22,306 bases of DNA, from assembly GCA_038230555.1 (NCBI GenBank), contig JBBRMZ010000065.1:1-22306 (forward strand), given 5' to 3'. Shown one piece after another: positions 4,841-22,306 of the stretch (position 1 is the stretch's first letter; every line of letters begins with the position of its first letter). The DNA comes from Chitinophagales bacterium (GTDB lineage Bacteria; Bacteroidota; Bacteroidia; Chitinophagales; Saprospiraceae). The notes under the pieces are model-generated. The model ran no database searches. It had not been told where the DNA came from and worked only from the letters and a program-made list of their open reading frames with translations. The position numbers and the translations under genes are program-made.

Positions 4841-5206
4841 ATGGCGGCGCACAATGATACGGGCAAACAAGGCGAAGCGTTAGCTACGGAATTCCTGCGC
4901 GCGGCGGGCTATGAAATTCTGGAACTTAACTGGCGTTCGGGCAAAGCGGAGTTGGACATTATCGCACGGGAAAAAGAAACGCTTATTTTTATTGAAGTTA
5001 AGACCCGTAGTTCGGCCTGGTTCGGCGCGCCGGAAGAATATGTCACGCCTAAAAAAGAAAAACTGATGTGGCGGGCCGCCGGGGCTTATATGGAAAAAGT
5101 TAGCCACGAGTGGGAGGTCCGGTTTGATATAATCAGCATTATTCTTCCTAAAAATAATCCGCCGGAGATCGTGCATTTTAAAGACGCTTTCTTTTTTAAA
5201 GAATGA
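4841..5206 (+). CDS. YraN family (UPF0102) endonuclease-like protein
   Basis: GEALATEFLRAAGYEILELNWR...ELDIIA...LIFIEVKTR...RFDIISI is the typical YraN layout. Size is 121 aa. Confidence 0.85.
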   Translation: MAAHNDTGKQGEALATEFLRAAGYEILELNWRSGKAELDIIAREKETLIFIEVKTRSSAWFGAPEEYVTPKKEKLMWRAAGAYMEKVSHEWEVRFDIISIILPKNNPPEIVHFKDAFFFKE

Positions 5207-16779: not shown

Positions 16780-17159
16780 TTATTTCAATATGCCCAGTCG
16801 AGGAGAATTTACCAGCAGTTGCATCTGATGAATCGCAATTTCGTTTAATTTTGTTAGCCGCTCCGGCTTGGATAAACCCATCTTAATAAACTCCGCTTTT
16901 AGATTTTTAAGAGATTGAAGCCTGCTTCTTTTTTAACCTCCTCGAATTGCACGAGGTTAAAATCCGGATTATTCAATATTTCCCAAACTCCAAGAAACTG
17001 AACGGTATCTTTATTTCTTATCCAGTTTGCAATAACGTCGGCAGGCGAATCTTCATTAAATTTTTTAGCAATATCTGTTAATGAAAAATACTCGTCCTGA
17101 GCGGCGACGGAAAATAAACTAATTTCGTTACCATCAACGGTTATTGTCTTTTTTGTCAT
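16780..17159 (-). pseudogene. KilA-N domain protein, internally deleted and frameshifted remnant
   Basis: The 86-aa ORF (16899-17159) matches only the N-terminal third of Bacteroidota KilA-N proteins (YFSLTDIAKKF...IANWIRNKDTVQFLGVWEILNNPDF...EAGFN). It stops where the conserved core should follow. A different frame (16780-16896) reads AEFIKMGLSKPERLTKLNEIAIHQMQLLVNSPRLGILK*, which resembles the usual C-terminal tail. Confidence 0.65.
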
Positions 17160-17335
17160 ATCTCATAGTTTTCTTTGCGTAAAAATAAGCAATGCATTAA
17201 AACTACCAACTAAAATGAATATATTCCTAAGATTTTTTGTGTTACTTTGAATTCGGTTCAACGCGTATACAGCAATCCATCTTGAAATACTTCTAAAATT
17301 TAAACTTGCCAGCCTCTCCCCGAACCCTCGGCGTC

Positions 17336-17410
17336 TTCAGCAAGCCCCGAATCGAAGCCTTTAGCGACGGCGTCTTCGCCATTGTCGTAACGCTGCTGGT
17401 TTTCGAATAG
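17336..17410 (+). pseudogene. orphan fragment of a TMEM175/DUF1211-type membrane protein gene
   Basis: It translates to FSKPRIEAFSDGVFAIVVTLLVFE*, the signature first helix (RxEAFSDGVFAIxxTLLV) of DUF1211/TMEM175. There is no start codon upstream in frame and a stop follows immediately. Confidence 0.5.
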
Positions 17411-17545
17411 CTATCGAAGAAAAGCAGAACGAAACGGGCTTTTTTTTGTTGAACTCAAATTCTGCGACGGTTGAACAGACCGCTCTGCTATAAGCGCCGT
17501 AAGCGGCGCGAAAAAGTTTACTCCTTCACCTTAATACTTTACTTT

Positions 17546-18196
17546 ATGCAAATCACCATTATTGGCGCAGGCGCCGGTATCTCGAACGCCGTCGCCCGTT
17601 TGTTTGGCGGGCAGGGCTTTTCCGTGGGCCTTATTGCGCGCAACGAAGAAAAACTGACCGTTGAAGCGGCGGCTTTAAACGCTTTAGGCGTCCGGGCCGC
17701 GTACGCCGTCGGCGACGCGGGCGACGGAACATCGCTGCGCGCGGCGTTGGATAAAATAGCCGGAGAACTGGGGCCGGCCGACATCGTTTTATATAACGCG
17801 TATACACGGGCGTTTAAGGGGATCGAAAAAGAGACCTGGGCGGGCGTGCAGGAACAAATGAACGTCAACGCGGGGGGCGCGTTTCATCTGCTGCAATATT
17901 TGCTTCCGAATATGAAAGCGGCCAACGCGGGTAAACTATTTTTCACCGGCGGCGGTCTTTCTCTTGCTCCGCAGCCGAATCTTATCGGTCTGGGCATGGG
18001 CAAGGCGGCGTTGCGCAATTTGGTTCACGGCGTGGCGGGCGGGCTGAAAAACAGCAACGTGCATCTTGCCACCGTTACCGTTTGCGGTTATGTGAATGAG
18101 AAAGACCCGAAATATAATCCGAACGCTATCGCTGCGGAGTTTTGGAAATTGTATCAACAGCAGCCCGGCGGGTTTGAAACGGAGATTGTTTATTAA
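17546..18196 (+). CDS. SDR family NAD(P)-dependent oxidoreductase
   Basis: Start moved to MQITIIGAGAGISNAVA, a Rossmann G-x-G-x-G-type motif at the N terminus. NAYT and later G-rich segments are present. The gene is visibly more GC-rich than its neighbours. Confidence 0.8.
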   Translation: MQITIIGAGAGISNAVARLFGGQGFSVGLIARNEEKLTVEAAALNALGVRAAYAVGDAGDGTSLRAALDKIAGELGPADIVLYNAYTRAFKGIEKETWAGVQEQMNVNAGGAFHLLQYLLPNMKAANAGKLFFTGGGLSLAPQPNLIGLGMGKAALRNLVHGVAGGLKNSNVHLATVTVCGYVNEKDPKYNPNAIAAEFWKLYQQQPGGFETEIVY

Positions 18197-18272
18197 CCGT
18201 CGCCTTTTTCAACTAATATATTGATTTGCAAGTAACTCTATAATTTTAACAGGCGCGCTTGCCGCTTATATA

Positions 18273-18325
18273 AAAATCCATATTTGCAGAAAACGTCTTT
18301 CCTGCGAATGTGGATTTTCTTATTG
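18273..18325 (+). terminator. long hairpin terminator after the SDR gene
   Basis: 17-bp stem AAAATCCATATTTGCAG(18273-18289)/CTGCGAATGTGGATTTT(18302-18318). Its two non-Watson-Crick positions are G-U pairs only when transcribed from the + strand. It is followed by TTTTCTTATT. Confidence 0.6.
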
Positions 18326-18581
18326 GCAGGAAACGGGTTTTCTGTACGTTAGTAAACGAGTAATGCATCTCTATTGGGGGAACCTATTTCCACCGCGCTG
18401 CGCCTGATTCAGGATATTAAATAACTACATATATAGCGCACAAACAGAAAGGCTACAAACGCGACCGGGTCTTTATTTTTGAGGATAATGCGCAGATCTT
18501 TGAATAGGATTCTTTGCCGCTTTGGCAATCGGTTGGCTTCTTTTCTCTTCCGTTCACTTTAGGTATTTTTCATCTGCGGCT

Positions 18582-18675
18582 TAGGTATGACTCAGATTGG
18601 GGGATTATTCTGACCTTACCTAAGTATGACTCAGGTATGGCTTTGGTCTGGCTTTGATGGGTTATTCAGACCTTA
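18582..18675. repeat. pair of composite direct repeats (TARGTATGACTCAG ... GGGWTTATTC(T)GACCTTA)
   Basis: TAGGTATGACTCAG 18582-18595 and TAAGTATGACTCAG 18621-18634. GGGATTATTCTGACCTTA 18601-18618 and GGGTTATTCAGACCTTA 18659-18675. An internal 11-bp pair, GGCTTTGGTCT/GGCTTTGATGG, lies at 18639-18660. Confidence 0.7.
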
Positions 18676-18682
18676 GTTATAC

Positions 18683-18715
18683 GTGACTTATATGTGCCTT
18701 ATATGTGACTTGAGG
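18683..18715. repeat. three tandem 11-bp units GTGACTTATAT / GTGCCTTATAT / GTGACTTGAGG
   Basis: Read directly from the sequence. The end of the block (GCCTTATATGTGACTTGAGGGG) is 18/22 identical to GGCTTATATGCGACTCGGGGGG at 11068-11089. Confidence 0.75.
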
Positions 18716-18930
18716 GGTTTTTACAAAGGCGTAGTACGGTTTGTATAAGGGTCATATAAGGCTTATTTTATAAGGCTTATTATGGAGTCAGTCAGGTAGC
18801 CGAGGGGGAAAGTTTAGGTTTTATTATTTGTGCGAGGTCAAACTTAGGAAGGGAAGTTTATTCTTTTATTGATTGTGCATAACTTGTTGAAATATTTTTA
18901 TAAAAGAATTTAAAATATTATTTATTTTTA

Positions 18931-18959
18931 TTGACAGAGTTGTGTTATATCATTATATT
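18931..18959 (+). promoter_or_regulatory. sigma70-consensus-like promoter TTGACA-17-TATATT
   Basis: TTGACA 18931-18936, exact 17-nt spacer, TATATT 18954-18959. The same -10 region also reads TAtaTTTG (18954-18961), which fits the Bacteroidota -7 motif TAnnTTTG. The region is AT-rich, so a chance match is possible. Confidence 0.35.
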
Positions 18960-19308
18960 TGCAATTATATGAGAAAGCAATATATTCAATGTTGTAAAAA
19001 CGAGTGTTTTCTCTATGAAATATATCTCCATTCTTGCTCTTGCTTCCGCAGCATGTTTTCGATTGGGTGAACGTCTGCCGTTTCCTTCTACCTTTTATTT
19101 ATTGGGGCAGTCCGACGGCTGGTCGTTACGGATCCGCAATGCTTAATATAAGGACTGTCATTGTCCAAATGAGTATGCCTTATTTTCACCCTATACGTTA
19201 CGAAGAATGGGGAGCACGATACCTTGTCAATTTATTTGTTTCTATATCTGAAAAGTAAATGGAATCTCCTGCACGTGAAAATTAGACCATATTACCTGAC
19301 AAAAATTC

Positions 19309-19337
19309 TTGACAATACAAAATAGATAACGTATAAG
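19309..19337 (+). promoter_or_regulatory. sigma70-consensus-like promoter TTGACA-17-TATAAG upstream of the nuclease-helicase gene
   Basis: TTGACA 19309-19314, exact 17-nt spacer, TATAAG 19332-19337, about 88 nt before the ATG at 19425. Two further TATATTTG motifs lie at 19361-19368 and 19382-19389. Confidence 0.4.
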
Positions 19338-19424
19338 TTATATGTTATTTGTAAAAGAAGTATATTTGTATGCGTATAATATATATTTGAATTACATTTT
19401 ATTTAATGCAGCACCATACTAACT

Positions 19425-21266
19425 ATGTTTAGCAGACTAATTCCTTCGTGGGAACACATTAATAACTTCAAGCAACCGCTGACAGAAGGAGAAAATTATT
19501 TACTTAAATTCTTAGACGAACATTTAAAGAAAGACGAAACTTTCCAAGAAGGCGGAGAATTAACAAAATATAACGGTTGGTTAATTTTTATTCAGCCATT
19601 TTTAAATGGCATCCGACCAGACTTAATTGTATTTAATCCAAACATAGGTGTACAAATAATAGAGGTAAAAGATTGGAATTTATACAATTATAAGTTTGAA
19701 AAAAACAAGCTAGATAAGTGGGATTTTTATGTGACAGACAATAAAGGTAGCTATCCAATAAAATCACCTGTTAAGCAAGTTGAATATTATAAAGAACAAT
19801 TAATAGGTCAATTGATACCACAAATTGGCGAGGAAATAGATAAAAACGTAAAGCAGTACGGACTAATTAAAACATCAATCTATTTTCATAAGGCTACGAC
19901 AAAACAGGTGCAGGAACTTTTCGAAAACCAAAGTAAGAACTATCCTTATTTTCCTGTATTTGGTAGAGATTCTTTGTTAGCTACAAACTTGCGGCAAATT
20001 ATTCCAAACAGTTATTTGACTGAAAGTATTTATTGGCCCAAAGATTGGAATAAAGAAATTTTATTTTGGCTTAATCCACCATTTCATTCACTTGAACAAG
20101 GAACTAAGCTCGTGTTAAATACATATCAAAAGAAATTTGCCGAACCACAAAAAGGGCATTACAGAGTAAGAGGTGTTGCAGGTAGTGGCAAGACACAAGT
20201 ATTAGCCTTCCGAGCAGGGAATCTTGCTTCGCAAGGCTACCGAGTTTTAATACTTTCGTTTAATATTACCCTTTGGCATTACATAAGGGATATGGTACAA
20301 AGAAGTCCTTTTAGTTTTAGTTGGGATAGATTTACTTTTAGACACTTTCATGGGTTTTGTAAAGACATACTAAATGAGTTTGGGGAAAACTGGCCTACAG
20401 AAAGTGGGGATGATGAAGAAACCTTTAGAGAAATTGTTCCAAATAAAGTTCTTAAAGCTATTCAAAAAGGTACATATGAAAAGTATGATGCAATTTTTAT
20501 TGACGAAGGCCAAGATTATTATATTGAATGGTATAGTATGCTTTGTCGGTTTTTGACACCCAGGGATGAAGTGGTCGTCGTTTGTGACAAAAAACAAAAT
20601 ATTTATAATCGTGAAATGGAATGGCTTGATAAAAGACGAAGCGGAGTAGAAAAATTTGGAGATTGGATAGAATTAAAAACTATCGTTAGGCTTCCAGAAA
20701 AAATTGCGGGGATAACAAAAATATTTAGCGAGAAGTTCAATCTAAATCAAGACGTAAGAGTTGAAAAGGTTGAACGACCAGACCTTTTTACTCAATACGA
20801 AGAACATTCAATGTGGCTAAATGTAGAACAAAAAGAATGGCTTAATAAAGTTAACGAAAGCTATGAAATTATTAAAGAAAATGGTACTTCAAAACATGGT
20901 TCTGATATGGTAATATTGGTGCCTGACAAAAATTATGGTTTTGCATGCGTAAACCTTTTTGAATTAACAAAAAATGTGAAAGTCAATCACGTATTTGAAA
21001 ACGAAGAAGAAAAACGTTATCATAAACATAAGAAGTCATTTTGGATGGGGGACGGTAGATTAAAAATATCTACGATACATAGTTTTAAAGGGTGGGAAGT
21101 CCTAAATGTAATTTTATTTATACCTGAAAGCTATTACGGCGCAGAAGATGCATATGACAAAATCGTTTATACTGCGATGACGAGAACACGGCAAAATTTA
21201 ATAGTAATAAATGCAAACAGAAGGTATTGGGAATTTGGCGATGGATTATCTAAATCATGGAGATAA
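19425..21266 (+). CDS. NERD / PD-(D/E)xK-like nuclease domain fused to an SF1 (UvrD-like) helicase
   Basis: N-terminus: TEGENYLLKFL ... RPDLIVFNPNIGVQIIEVKDW, a D66...E80-x-K82 restriction-endonuclease-like motif in a NERD-type context. Helicase core: Walker A GVAGSGKT (250-257), Walker B IFIDEGQDY (357-365), motif III-like CDKKQNIY, motif V-like STIHSFKGWE, motif VI-like VYTAMTRTRQNLIVI. The gene is visibly AT-rich relative to the core genes. Confidence 0.85.
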   Translation: MFSRLIPSWEHINNFKQPLTEGENYLLKFLDEHLKKDETFQEGGELTKYNGWLIFIQPFLNGIRPDLIVFNPNIGVQIIEVKDWNLYNYKFEKNKLDKWDFYVTDNKGSYPIKSPVKQVEYYKEQLIGQLIPQIGEEIDKNVKQYGLIKTSIYFHKATTKQVQELFENQSKNYPYFPVFGRDSLLATNLRQIIPNSYLTESIYWPKDWNKEILFWLNPPFHSLEQGTKLVLNTYQKKFAEPQKGHYRVRGVAGSGKTQVLAFRAGNLASQGYRVLILSFNITLWHYIRDMVQRSPFSFSWDRFTFRHFHGFCKDILNEFGENWPTESGDDEETFREIVPNKVLKAIQKGTYEKYDAIFIDEGQDYYIEWYSMLCRFLTPRDEVVVVCDKKQNIYNREMEWLDKRRSGVEKFGDWIELKTIVRLPEKIAGITKIFSEKFNLNQDVRVEKVERPDLFTQYEEHSMWLNVEQKEWLNKVNESYEIIKENGTSKHGSDMVILVPDKNYGFACVNLFELTKNVKVNHVFENEEEKRYHKHKKSFWMGDGRLKISTIHSFKGWEVLNVILFIPESYYGAEDAYDKIVYTAMTRTRQNLIVINANRRYWEFGDGLSKSWR

Positions 21267-21943
21267 AACAGCGTGTAACATTGTGCTTTGTGTGAGTGAA
21301 GCGGATAAACTACAATTTAGCTATTTGCAAATTATAATATAATACTGCACAAACTCGGACAGACATTTAAGGTAATAAAGTTTGCCTTTAAACCTCTACA
21401 TTCTGTCAAATATGGAAAAAAGTTCATTCGGTACACAAGGCTACTTTTACAACGAAAGTCGCTTTGGAGGCGCTGAAAGTGCAAAGAGGATTTTCACAGA
21501 TTGCGGATCATTAAAGTCTAAATACAAATCAGGTTGTCGATCATCAGAATATCATTGTCGAAAGACTGGCCAGTCTTTACGGAGCGATTTTGGCACACGT
21601 AAAATATGAACACATTTATATATACGTGTATGAAAATGGAAAAGACTTACATTAGGGCCTGACACAATTTATCGACTTGTTTGCTATAAGCGCTGACGTT
21701 AGATGCTGAATTATTGAACGTCCCATACGGGGTTTAATCAAAAAAACGATTATCTTTGTTCAAGCGGTTTTTATCTTACTTTCACCCATTATTTGTCCGA
21801 AGTATGGAGAATGCTACAAAACATCAGCAATATGCGATCATTGGACTTCAGTTGTGGGCAGACGAAATGCTAATTCCCAAACTACAGCAAGCATTGTTCG
21901 TTAGCAGCAAGCTTATTGCAACCACTCAATGAATTGAGGGTAT

Positions 21944-22306
21944 ATGAGTTTAGAGACCAAATCACAACAGTTAAAAGACATTATTGCTACCTATAACGCT
22001 GACTGGCTCCTAGGTGACCTTTCTGCGCTAATACATGCTGGTAGAGAAAGAGCTATTGACCAATTAGGAGAGTTGTCTTCTCCTCAACGGCAGTTATATT
22101 ATCTAGCGGGGCTAAATATAAGTTCAGACCCAATTAATGGACTTGACGTAATGTTTACTCATGAAAAATGGAACTCAATTGTAACTTTACTCAATGAAAT
22201 TGAAGCGGAATATGACAAACTATTCTTTCCTGCTAAACCTGAAGAAGTGAGGTACTCCCCATTCTTAGGACAAATTTCAACTAAAACTAAGGTGGAGTCA
22301 ATGTGA
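21944..22306 (+). CDS. hypothetical protein (120 aa), no family recognised
   Basis: ATG preceded by GAGGG 6 nt upstream. Plausible amphipathic helical sequence. The stop codon is the last three bases of the window. Confidence 0.4.
   Translation: MSLETKSQQLKDIIATYNADWLLGDLSALIHAGRERAIDQLGELSSPQRQLYYLAGLNISSDPINGLDVMFTHEKWNSIVTLLNEIEAEYDKLFFPAKPEEVRYSPFLGQISTKTKVESM

Follow-up and report, generated by a model that had tools for sequence, protein, structure and literature searches.

The stretch of DNA analysed here, which we call the window, comprises 22,306 nucleotides (nt) from a Chitinophagales bacterium (NCBI GenBank assembly GCA_038230555.1, contig JBBRMZ010000065.1, positions 1 to 22,306 of the forward strand). 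Toward its right end lies a gene for a single protein of 613 amino acids (aa), in which an N-terminal NERD nuclease domain of the PD-(D/E)xK type is joined to a complete UvrD-like helicase of superfamily 1 (SF1), and which is referred to below as the NERD-UvrD gene. Judged from its sequence and those of its relatives, the gene is intact, horizontally acquired and very probably functional. We consider it reasonably probable that its product, a self-contained and mobile nuclease-helicase, defends the cell on its own by attacking the DNA of phages or plasmids. An initial annotation of the window had described an open reading frame (ORF) of this length with a series of quoted motifs and had read it as a single chain uniting the two activities; every motif was located at the claimed residue, and both parts match Pfam models above their cutoffs. 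The gene and its two parts are as follows.

19425..21266, forward strand, stop codon included: NERD-UvrD fusion gene, 613 aa (ORF list and translation)
19425..20114, forward strand: N-terminal domain, residues 1-230, a NERD-type PD-(D/E)xK core with a conserved linker (Pfam, alignment and structure model)
20115..21263, forward strand: helicase core of the SF1A (UvrD/Rep/PcrA) type, residues 231-613 (Pfam, profile search of the PDB and motifs)

The reading frame starts with ATG and runs uninterrupted to its stop codon. A homologue search returned 1120 proteins, with full-length homologues at 54-89% identity to the 613-aa protein; of the 120 best, almost every one has a length close to 613 aa. 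In an exhaustive profile search, E<=1e-30 was reached by 990 clusters (made at 50% identity), and among the best 150 of these a length of approximately 590-650 aa is the rule with few exceptions. Given the 1120 homologues and the conservation of catalytic residues in both domains, the ORF and its motifs are, on these alignments, not a product of chance.

The Pfam NERD model (PF08378) covers residues 48-136 with 29.2 bits against a gathering score of 22.1. Within this span the nuclease motifs are RPDLIVF at residues 64-70, carrying D66, and IIEVKDW at residues 78-84, carrying E80 and K82. By translation, the catalytic codons lie on the forward strand at these positions.

19620-19622: D66
19662-19664: E80
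19668-19670: K82

Among 65 homologues of 54-84% identity, two residues of the PD-(D/E)xK triad, D66 and K82, never vary, and the third, E80, is conserved in at least 90%; invariant as well are E23, which lies in the first helix, and Q118-x3-Y122, part of the helix that follows the strands, and the linker to the helicase has the conserved residues W215, P218, P219 and H221. The predicted structure of this domain (predicted local distance difference test, pLDDT, 89.4) consists of a helix at 21-33, strands at 53-56, 67-71 and 75-82, a helix at 115-130 and a strand at 148-154. When the domain model was compared with the PDB by Foldseek, the top matches were the PD-(D/E)xK proteins XisH, the Can2 nuclease, EndoMS/NucS, N.BspD6I, McrC and SfsA, the best with an E-value of 0.077.

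The helicase part matches three Pfam models above their gathering scores, namely UvrD-helicase (PF00580, 48.9 bits, cutoff 23), AAA_19 (PF13245) and UvrD_C_2 (PF13538), which together span residues 231-595. Its motifs, all on the forward strand and located directly in the sequence, are listed here.

Motif Q: LNTYQ, with Q235
Walker A: GVAGSGKT, residues 250-257, nt 20172-20195
Motif Ia: SFNITLWHY
Motif II: IFIDEGQDY, residues 357-365, with DEGQD (DExQD) at 360-364
Motif III: CDKKQNIY, residues 387-394, with DKKQNIY (DxxQxIY)
Motif IV: R422
Motif V: STIHSFKGWE, residues 549-558
Motif VI: TAMTRTRQNL, residues 583-592

In the same 65 homologues Walker A and Walker B are invariant, as are Q391 of motif III, R422 of motif IV and R587 of motif VI. 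A plain sequence search of the protein against the PDB gave no match; a profile of the family run against the PDB sequences returned PcrA, GajB, UvrD and Rep as its sole matches. The AlphaFold model of the whole protein (pLDDT 85.2, predicted template-modelling score 0.79) was matched by Foldseek to SLFN11, UvrD, Upf1, RecD2 and Dda at E-values of 1e-15 to 1e-10, with template-modelling scores of at most 0.47, a comparison by which SF1A is not separable from SF1B. In the viral scan the strongest matches were to UvrD-like 3'-5' helicases, with alignments of some 400 columns. Orthology to the housekeeping UvrD, PcrA or RecD was rejected on NCBIfam equivalog scores of 13-25 bits against cutoffs of 310-1144.

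In the model nothing is inserted between R422 of motif IV and motif V besides a short low-confidence loop at 440-460, and the helicase part, at just about 383 aa, is too short to accommodate a 2B domain. The NERD-UvrD helicase therefore lacks the usual arrangement of four subdomains and appears, from the secondary structure of the model, to be an SF1A motor without 2B. Rep and UvrD do not need their 2B domain to unwind DNA, its role being a regulatory one. Its absence here suggests a motor that is intrinsically active and has to be controlled from elsewhere, perhaps by the conserved W215-PP-H221 linker or by the nuclease domain.

The distribution of the family and the way its DNA is conserved speak for a mobile gene. 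Ignavibacteria, Flavobacteriaceae and Bacteroidales have close relatives of 59-82% identity, a relative in Campylobacteraceae is 70% identical, and one in a metagenome-assembled genome of Chloroflexota shows 62% over a partial match. DNA similarity (blastn) to the 19 loci fetched is confined to approximately 19420-21281, beginning at most 5 nt from the ATG and stopping at most 15 nt past the stop codon; no blastn match links the upstream spacer at 18197-19424 to the flanking DNA of a homologous locus. The guanine-plus-cytosine (GC) content of the gene stays at 0.29-0.39 in 26 loci, while that of the host flanks ranges over 0.28-0.50. In both respects, the similarity limited to the ORF and the GC kept across hosts, the gene behaves as a mobile cassette of one gene. 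In the window itself the gene has a GC of 0.331 and a third-codon-position GC (GC3) of 0.262, against 0.39-0.53 and 0.40-0.61 in the 14 core genes, which bears out the earlier remark that it is far more AT-rich than the core genes. A phage origin was rejected, as the viral scan and PHROGs matched the helicase core only: PHROGs gave no full-length match, and IMG/VR gave one relative, partial and of 31% identity. One longer relative of 878 aa (P0223) carries two C-terminal TBP-TOTE domains (PF22721, E 4e-36), which ties the module to TOTE conflict systems; other longer relatives have N-terminal extensions of about 200 aa or C-terminal ones of about 250 aa with no Pfam match.

A survey of homologue neighbourhoods, which the initial annotation had proposed, found both defence and mobile-element contexts. 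Eleven of them were read from precomputed Pfam annotation.

L015 (GCA_965661945.1), homologue at 10001-11842: hsdS-hsdM-homologue-hsdS-DUF3800-hsdR, inside a type I restriction-modification (R-M) operon
L020: hsdR-hsdS-GmrSD-SLFN_AlbA-hsdM-HSDR_N-homologue-DUF6946-DUF4062-x-TIR
L017: homologue follows hsdR and HEPN_AbiU2
L024: homologue 2.7 kb from hsdM-PIN-hsdS-hsdR
L016: AbiEii two genes away from the homologue
L010: homologue near AbiJ
L012: homologue near an AAA_15/21 ATPase
L014: homologue near SocA/Panacea and Peptidase_U49
L023: homologue near HigB and an SMC-like AAA_15 protein
L018/L019: homologue among resolvase, IS91 and integrase genes

In 31 metagenomic loci, with 118 neighbour ORFs between them, the Pfam families encountered most often next to the homologue are HsdR domains, retron-type reverse transcriptases, TIR and AAA_15/21. 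When the 221 neighbour ORFs of 46 loci were clustered all against all, HsdR came first with 5 of the 46 loci and HsdM reached 3, so that no neighbour recurs in more than 5 and none among those of the 46 loci qualifies as a conserved partner gene; the absence of a recognisable partner, remarked on from the window alone, extends to these loci.

The frequency of type I R-M genes in these surroundings raises the question of whether the protein is a module that depends on a variable partner, especially type I R-M, by which it is held latent and from which it is released when a phage inhibits restriction; the copy in the window would then be a functionless orphan. PrrC and RloC, embedded in hsd operons, are the model for such coupling. 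The homologue of L015 stands between hsdM and hsdS/hsdR, others are found in or beside the hsd clusters of L017, L020, L024, L002 and L040, and HsdR is the commonest neighbour overall. Nevertheless most of the 46 loci, the window included, have no hsd gene within 4 kb, defence genes often nest in hsd loci without functional coupling, and the gene in the window is intact with all its catalytic residues kept, so we regard this explanation as quite improbable. As an observation in its own right, the place of the L015 homologue between hsdM and the second hsdS resembles that of prrC in the EcoprrI locus.

A second explanation is that the protein is a DNA repair, recombination or replication-restart enzyme of the host or of a mobile element, for instance one that processes DNA ends in the manner of AddA/RecB. 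Modules of the NERD and UvrD types are known in repair proteins, and some distant relatives do sit in housekeeping surroundings; one homologue adjoins an ImuB/DnaE2 mutasome cassette, another comes after a split UvrD-like gene, and mobile-element genes adjoin the homologue in L018/L019. The patchy spread across phyla at 59-82% identity argues against such a role, as do the variable genomic position, the foreign composition, the repeated embedding in R-M operons and the UvrD, PcrA and RecD equivalog scores, which fall far under their cutoffs. We judge the repair reading unlikely, if less so than dependence on R-M.

The comparison with AddA/RecB is instructive at the level of architecture, because in those enzymes too an SF1A UvrD-like motor is covalently linked to a PD-(D/E)xK nuclease, which processes the DNA as the enzyme moves along it. 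RecBCD, for its part, degrades phage DNA as well. In the NERD-UvrD protein, however, the order of the domains is reversed, the size is about half, and the nuclease is NERD rather than a RecB-family one by Pfam; the window protein moreover is without partner subunits, is not a conserved core gene and matches no NCBIfam equivalog.

Among named defence models the best match in PADLOC is PDLC01087, C3a187 'NERD+UvrD' (E 1.6e-79, 266 bits), which aligns residues 3-599 with profile positions 2-546 of 559. The gene had been offered at first as a possible undescribed variant; this is not supported, since the architecture is already modelled in a defence database and the single-chain nuclease-helicase kind of defence is established by Nhi. 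C3a187 is 'Cas type 3 Associated' cluster 187, with 3 members, of which Dole_0738 is the example (Shah et al., 2018, PMC6546367). Its members adjoin type III-A/B modules, and a Cas3-like helicase-nuclease capacity was proposed for them (PMC6546367). The likeness to C3a187 comprises homology over the whole length, the NERD plus UvrD architecture and a similar size. The difference lies in the setting: C3a187 was defined beside cas modules, whereas the window gene and the relatives examined are cas-independent single-gene cassettes in islands of R-M, abortive infection (Abi) and toxin-antitoxin genes.

The match brings in a third explanation, in which the protein is an accessory effector of type III CRISPR-Cas that carries out processive helicase-nuclease degradation after Cas10 targeting, and in the window is either orphaned or serves a cas locus in another part of the genome. 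In its favour stand the full-length match at 1.6e-79, the 3 C3a187 members located beside type III-A/B modules (Shah et al., 2018) and the listing of UvrD and NERD among putative CRISPR auxiliary genes (Altae-Tran et al., 2023). The association of C3a187 with cas genes is based, on the other hand, on 3 genomes. No cas gene or CRISPR-like repeat array was found in the 22.3-kb window, no cas family is present among the listed genes and top neighbour families of 46 close and 18 distant loci, and Pfam detects no CARF or SAVED sensor domain in the protein. This makes it the most improbable of the three explanations in our estimation, and the label of a CRISPR accessory does not fit the genomic behaviour of NERD-UvrD genes.

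The known system to which the protein was first likened is Nhi, represented by SERP2475 of S. epidermidis and also by the Nhi-like proteins of Millman. What stands of this comparison is the layout. Both are single chains of about 600 aa (606 against 613) with an N-terminal PD-(D/E)xK nuclease and an SF1 helicase; the catalytic triad occupies nearly equal positions (D72/E85/K87 in Nhi, D66/E80/K82 here); a conserved 'PF' linker and a Q motif precede the SF1 P-loop helicase; and both are stand-alone genes of patchy distribution spread by horizontal transfer. What does not stand is membership of the family. As controls we took genuine Nhi proteins, namely SERP2475, a Lacinutrix homologue and a Vibrio homologue (Bari et al. 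supplement, bioRxiv 10.1101/776245), which match the PADLOC Nhi/AbiO models at 1e-157 to 1e-188. For the window protein these models are not among the 25 best matches, so that any match to them has an E-value above 0.0017; BLASTP against SERP2475 gives E 0.13, and DUF2075 (PF09848) reaches 14.2 bits against a cutoff of 24. Profile-profile comparison with Nhi yields 80% probability (E 1.3e-5), and its alignment is confined to the linker plus the first half of the helicase core. The Nhi helicase belongs to DUF2075/PF09848, its closest predicted structural homologues are Dda, Upf1 and DNA2, all of SF1B, and its unwinding is bipolar, whereas the motor here has the SF1A motifs DExQD and DxxQxIY, and the C-terminal glyoxalase-like domain is missing. 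Membership was accordingly rejected, on the lack of a match to an Nhi/AbiO model and on a helicase of the UvrD-type SF1A rather than DUF2075. The NERD-UvrD protein is at most a very distant relative of Nhi with a different class of motor, and by analogy Nhi may be taken as its best functional analogue. Separately, the Nhi proteins match PDLC02372 (Nhi) and PDLC02350 (AbiO) about equally, at 1e-140 to 1e-188, and from these nearly equal scores the staphylococcal Nhi and the lactococcal AbiO appear to be one family under two names.

An affinity to Gabija and Hachiman had also been suggested, and this comes down to a generic UvrD-like core. GajB shares the UvrD-like SF1A core, is among the nearest solved structures by profile (E 2.4e-8), and many PADLOC GajB models give weak partial matches of at most 42 bits to parts of the core. 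Unlike the NERD-UvrD protein, GajB has no nuclease domain and acts with GajA (OLD ATPase-TOPRIM); no GajA-like ORF was found at 16.8-22.3 kb of the window, and none recurs near the relatives. The helicase of Hachiman, HamB, belongs to superfamily 2 (SF2). It acts with the nuclease HamA (DUF1837), while the window protein is of SF1 and has neither a HamA nor any other partner gene, and no Ham model occurs among its PADLOC matches. The Gabija and Hachiman readings, like that of a type III CRISPR accessory, were rejected because the partner genes are missing. The remaining PADLOC matches, to GajB models, RTasHel and RTasNERD-Hel, are weak and cover parts of the helicase only. RTasNERD-Hel, the partner of the UG34 reverse transcriptase (Mestre et al., 2022), resembles the NERD-UvrD protein in its N-terminal NERD, C-terminal helicase and defence setting; it differs in that the match is to the helicase alone (E 8.5e-6) and in that no reverse transcriptase adjoins the gene in the window.

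If the NERD-UvrD protein is indeed a one-protein defence, a mechanism may be outlined from its parts. The motor would load on single-stranded or 3'-tailed DNA and, going by SF1A polarity, move 3'->5' with ATP. It would feed DNA to, or position, the Mg2+-dependent NERD nuclease, which in turn would cut phage or plasmid DNA or replication intermediates. We infer that such a mechanism resembles that of Nhi, or of a miniature AddA/RecB with its domain order reversed. To spare host DNA the protein may rely on one of two cues known by analogy: free DNA ends, as with GajB, which senses DNA termini, or phage replication intermediates coated with single-stranded DNA-binding protein, as with Nhi.

Several points count against a defence function. 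The fold match of the N-terminal domain to solved PD-(D/E)xK structures is below significance, and the sole named model matched over the full length was put forward as a CRISPR accessory and not as a stand-alone system. The defence-island context of the homologues is qualitative, and several distant relatives of 23-33% identity lie among housekeeping genes. In the window no known defence gene stands beside the NERD-UvrD gene, only remnants, and some 1 kb further downstream the contig stops. Finally, no experimental work on NERD-UvrD proteins was found in the literature.

A broader and more tentative proposal, possible in our view though well short of probable, is that NERD-UvrD proteins form a widespread stand-alone immune family of about 10^3 clusters at 50% identity with a mechanism distinct from that of Nhi. 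A 2B-less SF1A motor would run 3'->5' along the ends or replication intermediates of invader DNA and thereby drive the NERD nuclease, and in some genomes the protein would form a PrrC-like second line within type I R-M operons, firing when restriction is blocked. On this proposal the family would have been overlooked because the sole database model is filed as a CRISPR accessory.

We now turn to the surroundings of the gene. The claim of more than 600 bp of ORF-poor DNA on either side is borne out, with 1228 bp on the 5' side and 677 bp on the 3' side in which no ORF of at least 76 aa is present, and no co-oriented gene lies within 0.7-1.2 kb of the NERD-UvrD ORF. Remnants of KilA-N and TMEM175 genes had likewise been noted nearby, and both are recognised by Pfam. 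From left to right the region is composed as follows.

16899..18196, no strand: mosaic left border of the variable region (Pfam and composition)
16899-17159, reverse strand: KilA-N remnant (Pfam E 5.4e-7, profile positions 12-62 of 107, GC 0.35)
17306-17407, forward strand: TMEM175 N-terminal remnant (Pfam E 2.6e-6, profile positions 1-20 of 88)
about 17549-18196, no strand given: short-chain dehydrogenase (SDR) gene (GC 0.56, GC3 0.63)
18197..19424, no strand: upstream spacer, AT-rich and ORF-poor (GC 0.36)
19361-19368 and 19382-19389, forward strand: two candidate -7 promoter boxes, TAnnTTTG, 64 and 43 nt before the ATG (pattern match)
21267..21943, no strand: downstream spacer, AT-rich and ORF-poor (GC 0.37)
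21944-22306, strand not stated: orf120, 120 aa, without a domain, its TGA exactly at the window end

TAnnTTTG is the Bacteroidota-type -7 promoter box, and the two elements are candidate promoter boxes for a monocistronic transcript. A sigma-70 promoter scan of the locus gave matches no commoner than in shuffled sequence, and no intrinsic-terminator-like site was found downstream of the gene. A tRNA scan of its surroundings found none, an Rfam scan of the flanks returned no family at gathering score and merely sub-threshold miRNA noise, and no direct or inverted repeats were found to bound the gene. Exact-sequence look-ups with the 613-aa protein and with the FAA hydrolase encoded nearby gave no match.

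The SDR gene exceeds every core gene in both GC and GC3 and is enclosed by AT-rich remnants; by composition it looks like a separate horizontal acquisition. With the KilA-N and TMEM175 remnants, and this high-GC gene between them and the NERD-UvrD gene, the DNA between about 16.8 kb and the end of the window is a compositional mosaic. The possibility of a system continuing past the window end had been raised as well, and was not sustained: homology stops at the borders of the ORF, no neighbour recurs in more than 5 of the 46 loci, and the source contig (22,385 nt) appears to stop about 80 nt beyond the window. The last ORF, orf120, was rejected as a partner, since it is absent from all related loci and corresponds to a hypothetical protein of at least 237 aa from which its C-terminal part diverges or has been lost. 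Its near-identical relatives are 192-237 aa long and the sequences part ways after residue 102; a frameshift, a truncation or an error at the contig end is the probable cause.

The core genes upstream include, by profile matches, those for a TonB-dependent receptor, RNase R, BamD, RpoZ, CoaBC, DUF4835 and FAA hydrolase, a combination suggestive of a Bacteroidota chromosome. Arrays of 7-nt units (AATGGTG, AATGGTA, AATGAGG and AATGATG, with a super-period of 14 nt) are located at 14929-14990 and 15949-16116; they fill the intergenic regions flanking the DUF4835 gene and start directly past the stop codons of CoaBC and DUF4835. Another repeat, with a period of 21 nt and 4-5 copies at 11684-11788, lies inside two overlapping ORFs (11677-12063 on the reverse and 11680-12048 on the forward strand) and may encode a repetitive protein. 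Also part of the core is a housekeeping UPF0102 (YraN-like) gene at 4841-5206, for a small PD-(D/E)xK protein unrelated to the one discussed here, whose NERD score lies at the gathering threshold (22.1 bits).

For the genome at hand, the NERD-UvrD gene marks out the DNA between 16.8 kb and the end of the contig as variable and acquired by horizontal transfer. For the family, validation would enter a further common defence, made of a single nuclease-helicase gene, in the catalogue, and would mean that the pairing of a nuclease with an SF1 translocase arose as a solution more than once, with an SF1A motor here and a DUF2075/SF1B-like one in Nhi. The PADLOC model now filed as a CRISPR accessory would be relabelled, and annotation tools would stop missing hundreds of loci. 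With 613 aa and no partner, the protein readily lends itself to studying how a helicase-nuclease distinguishes invading DNA from that of its host.

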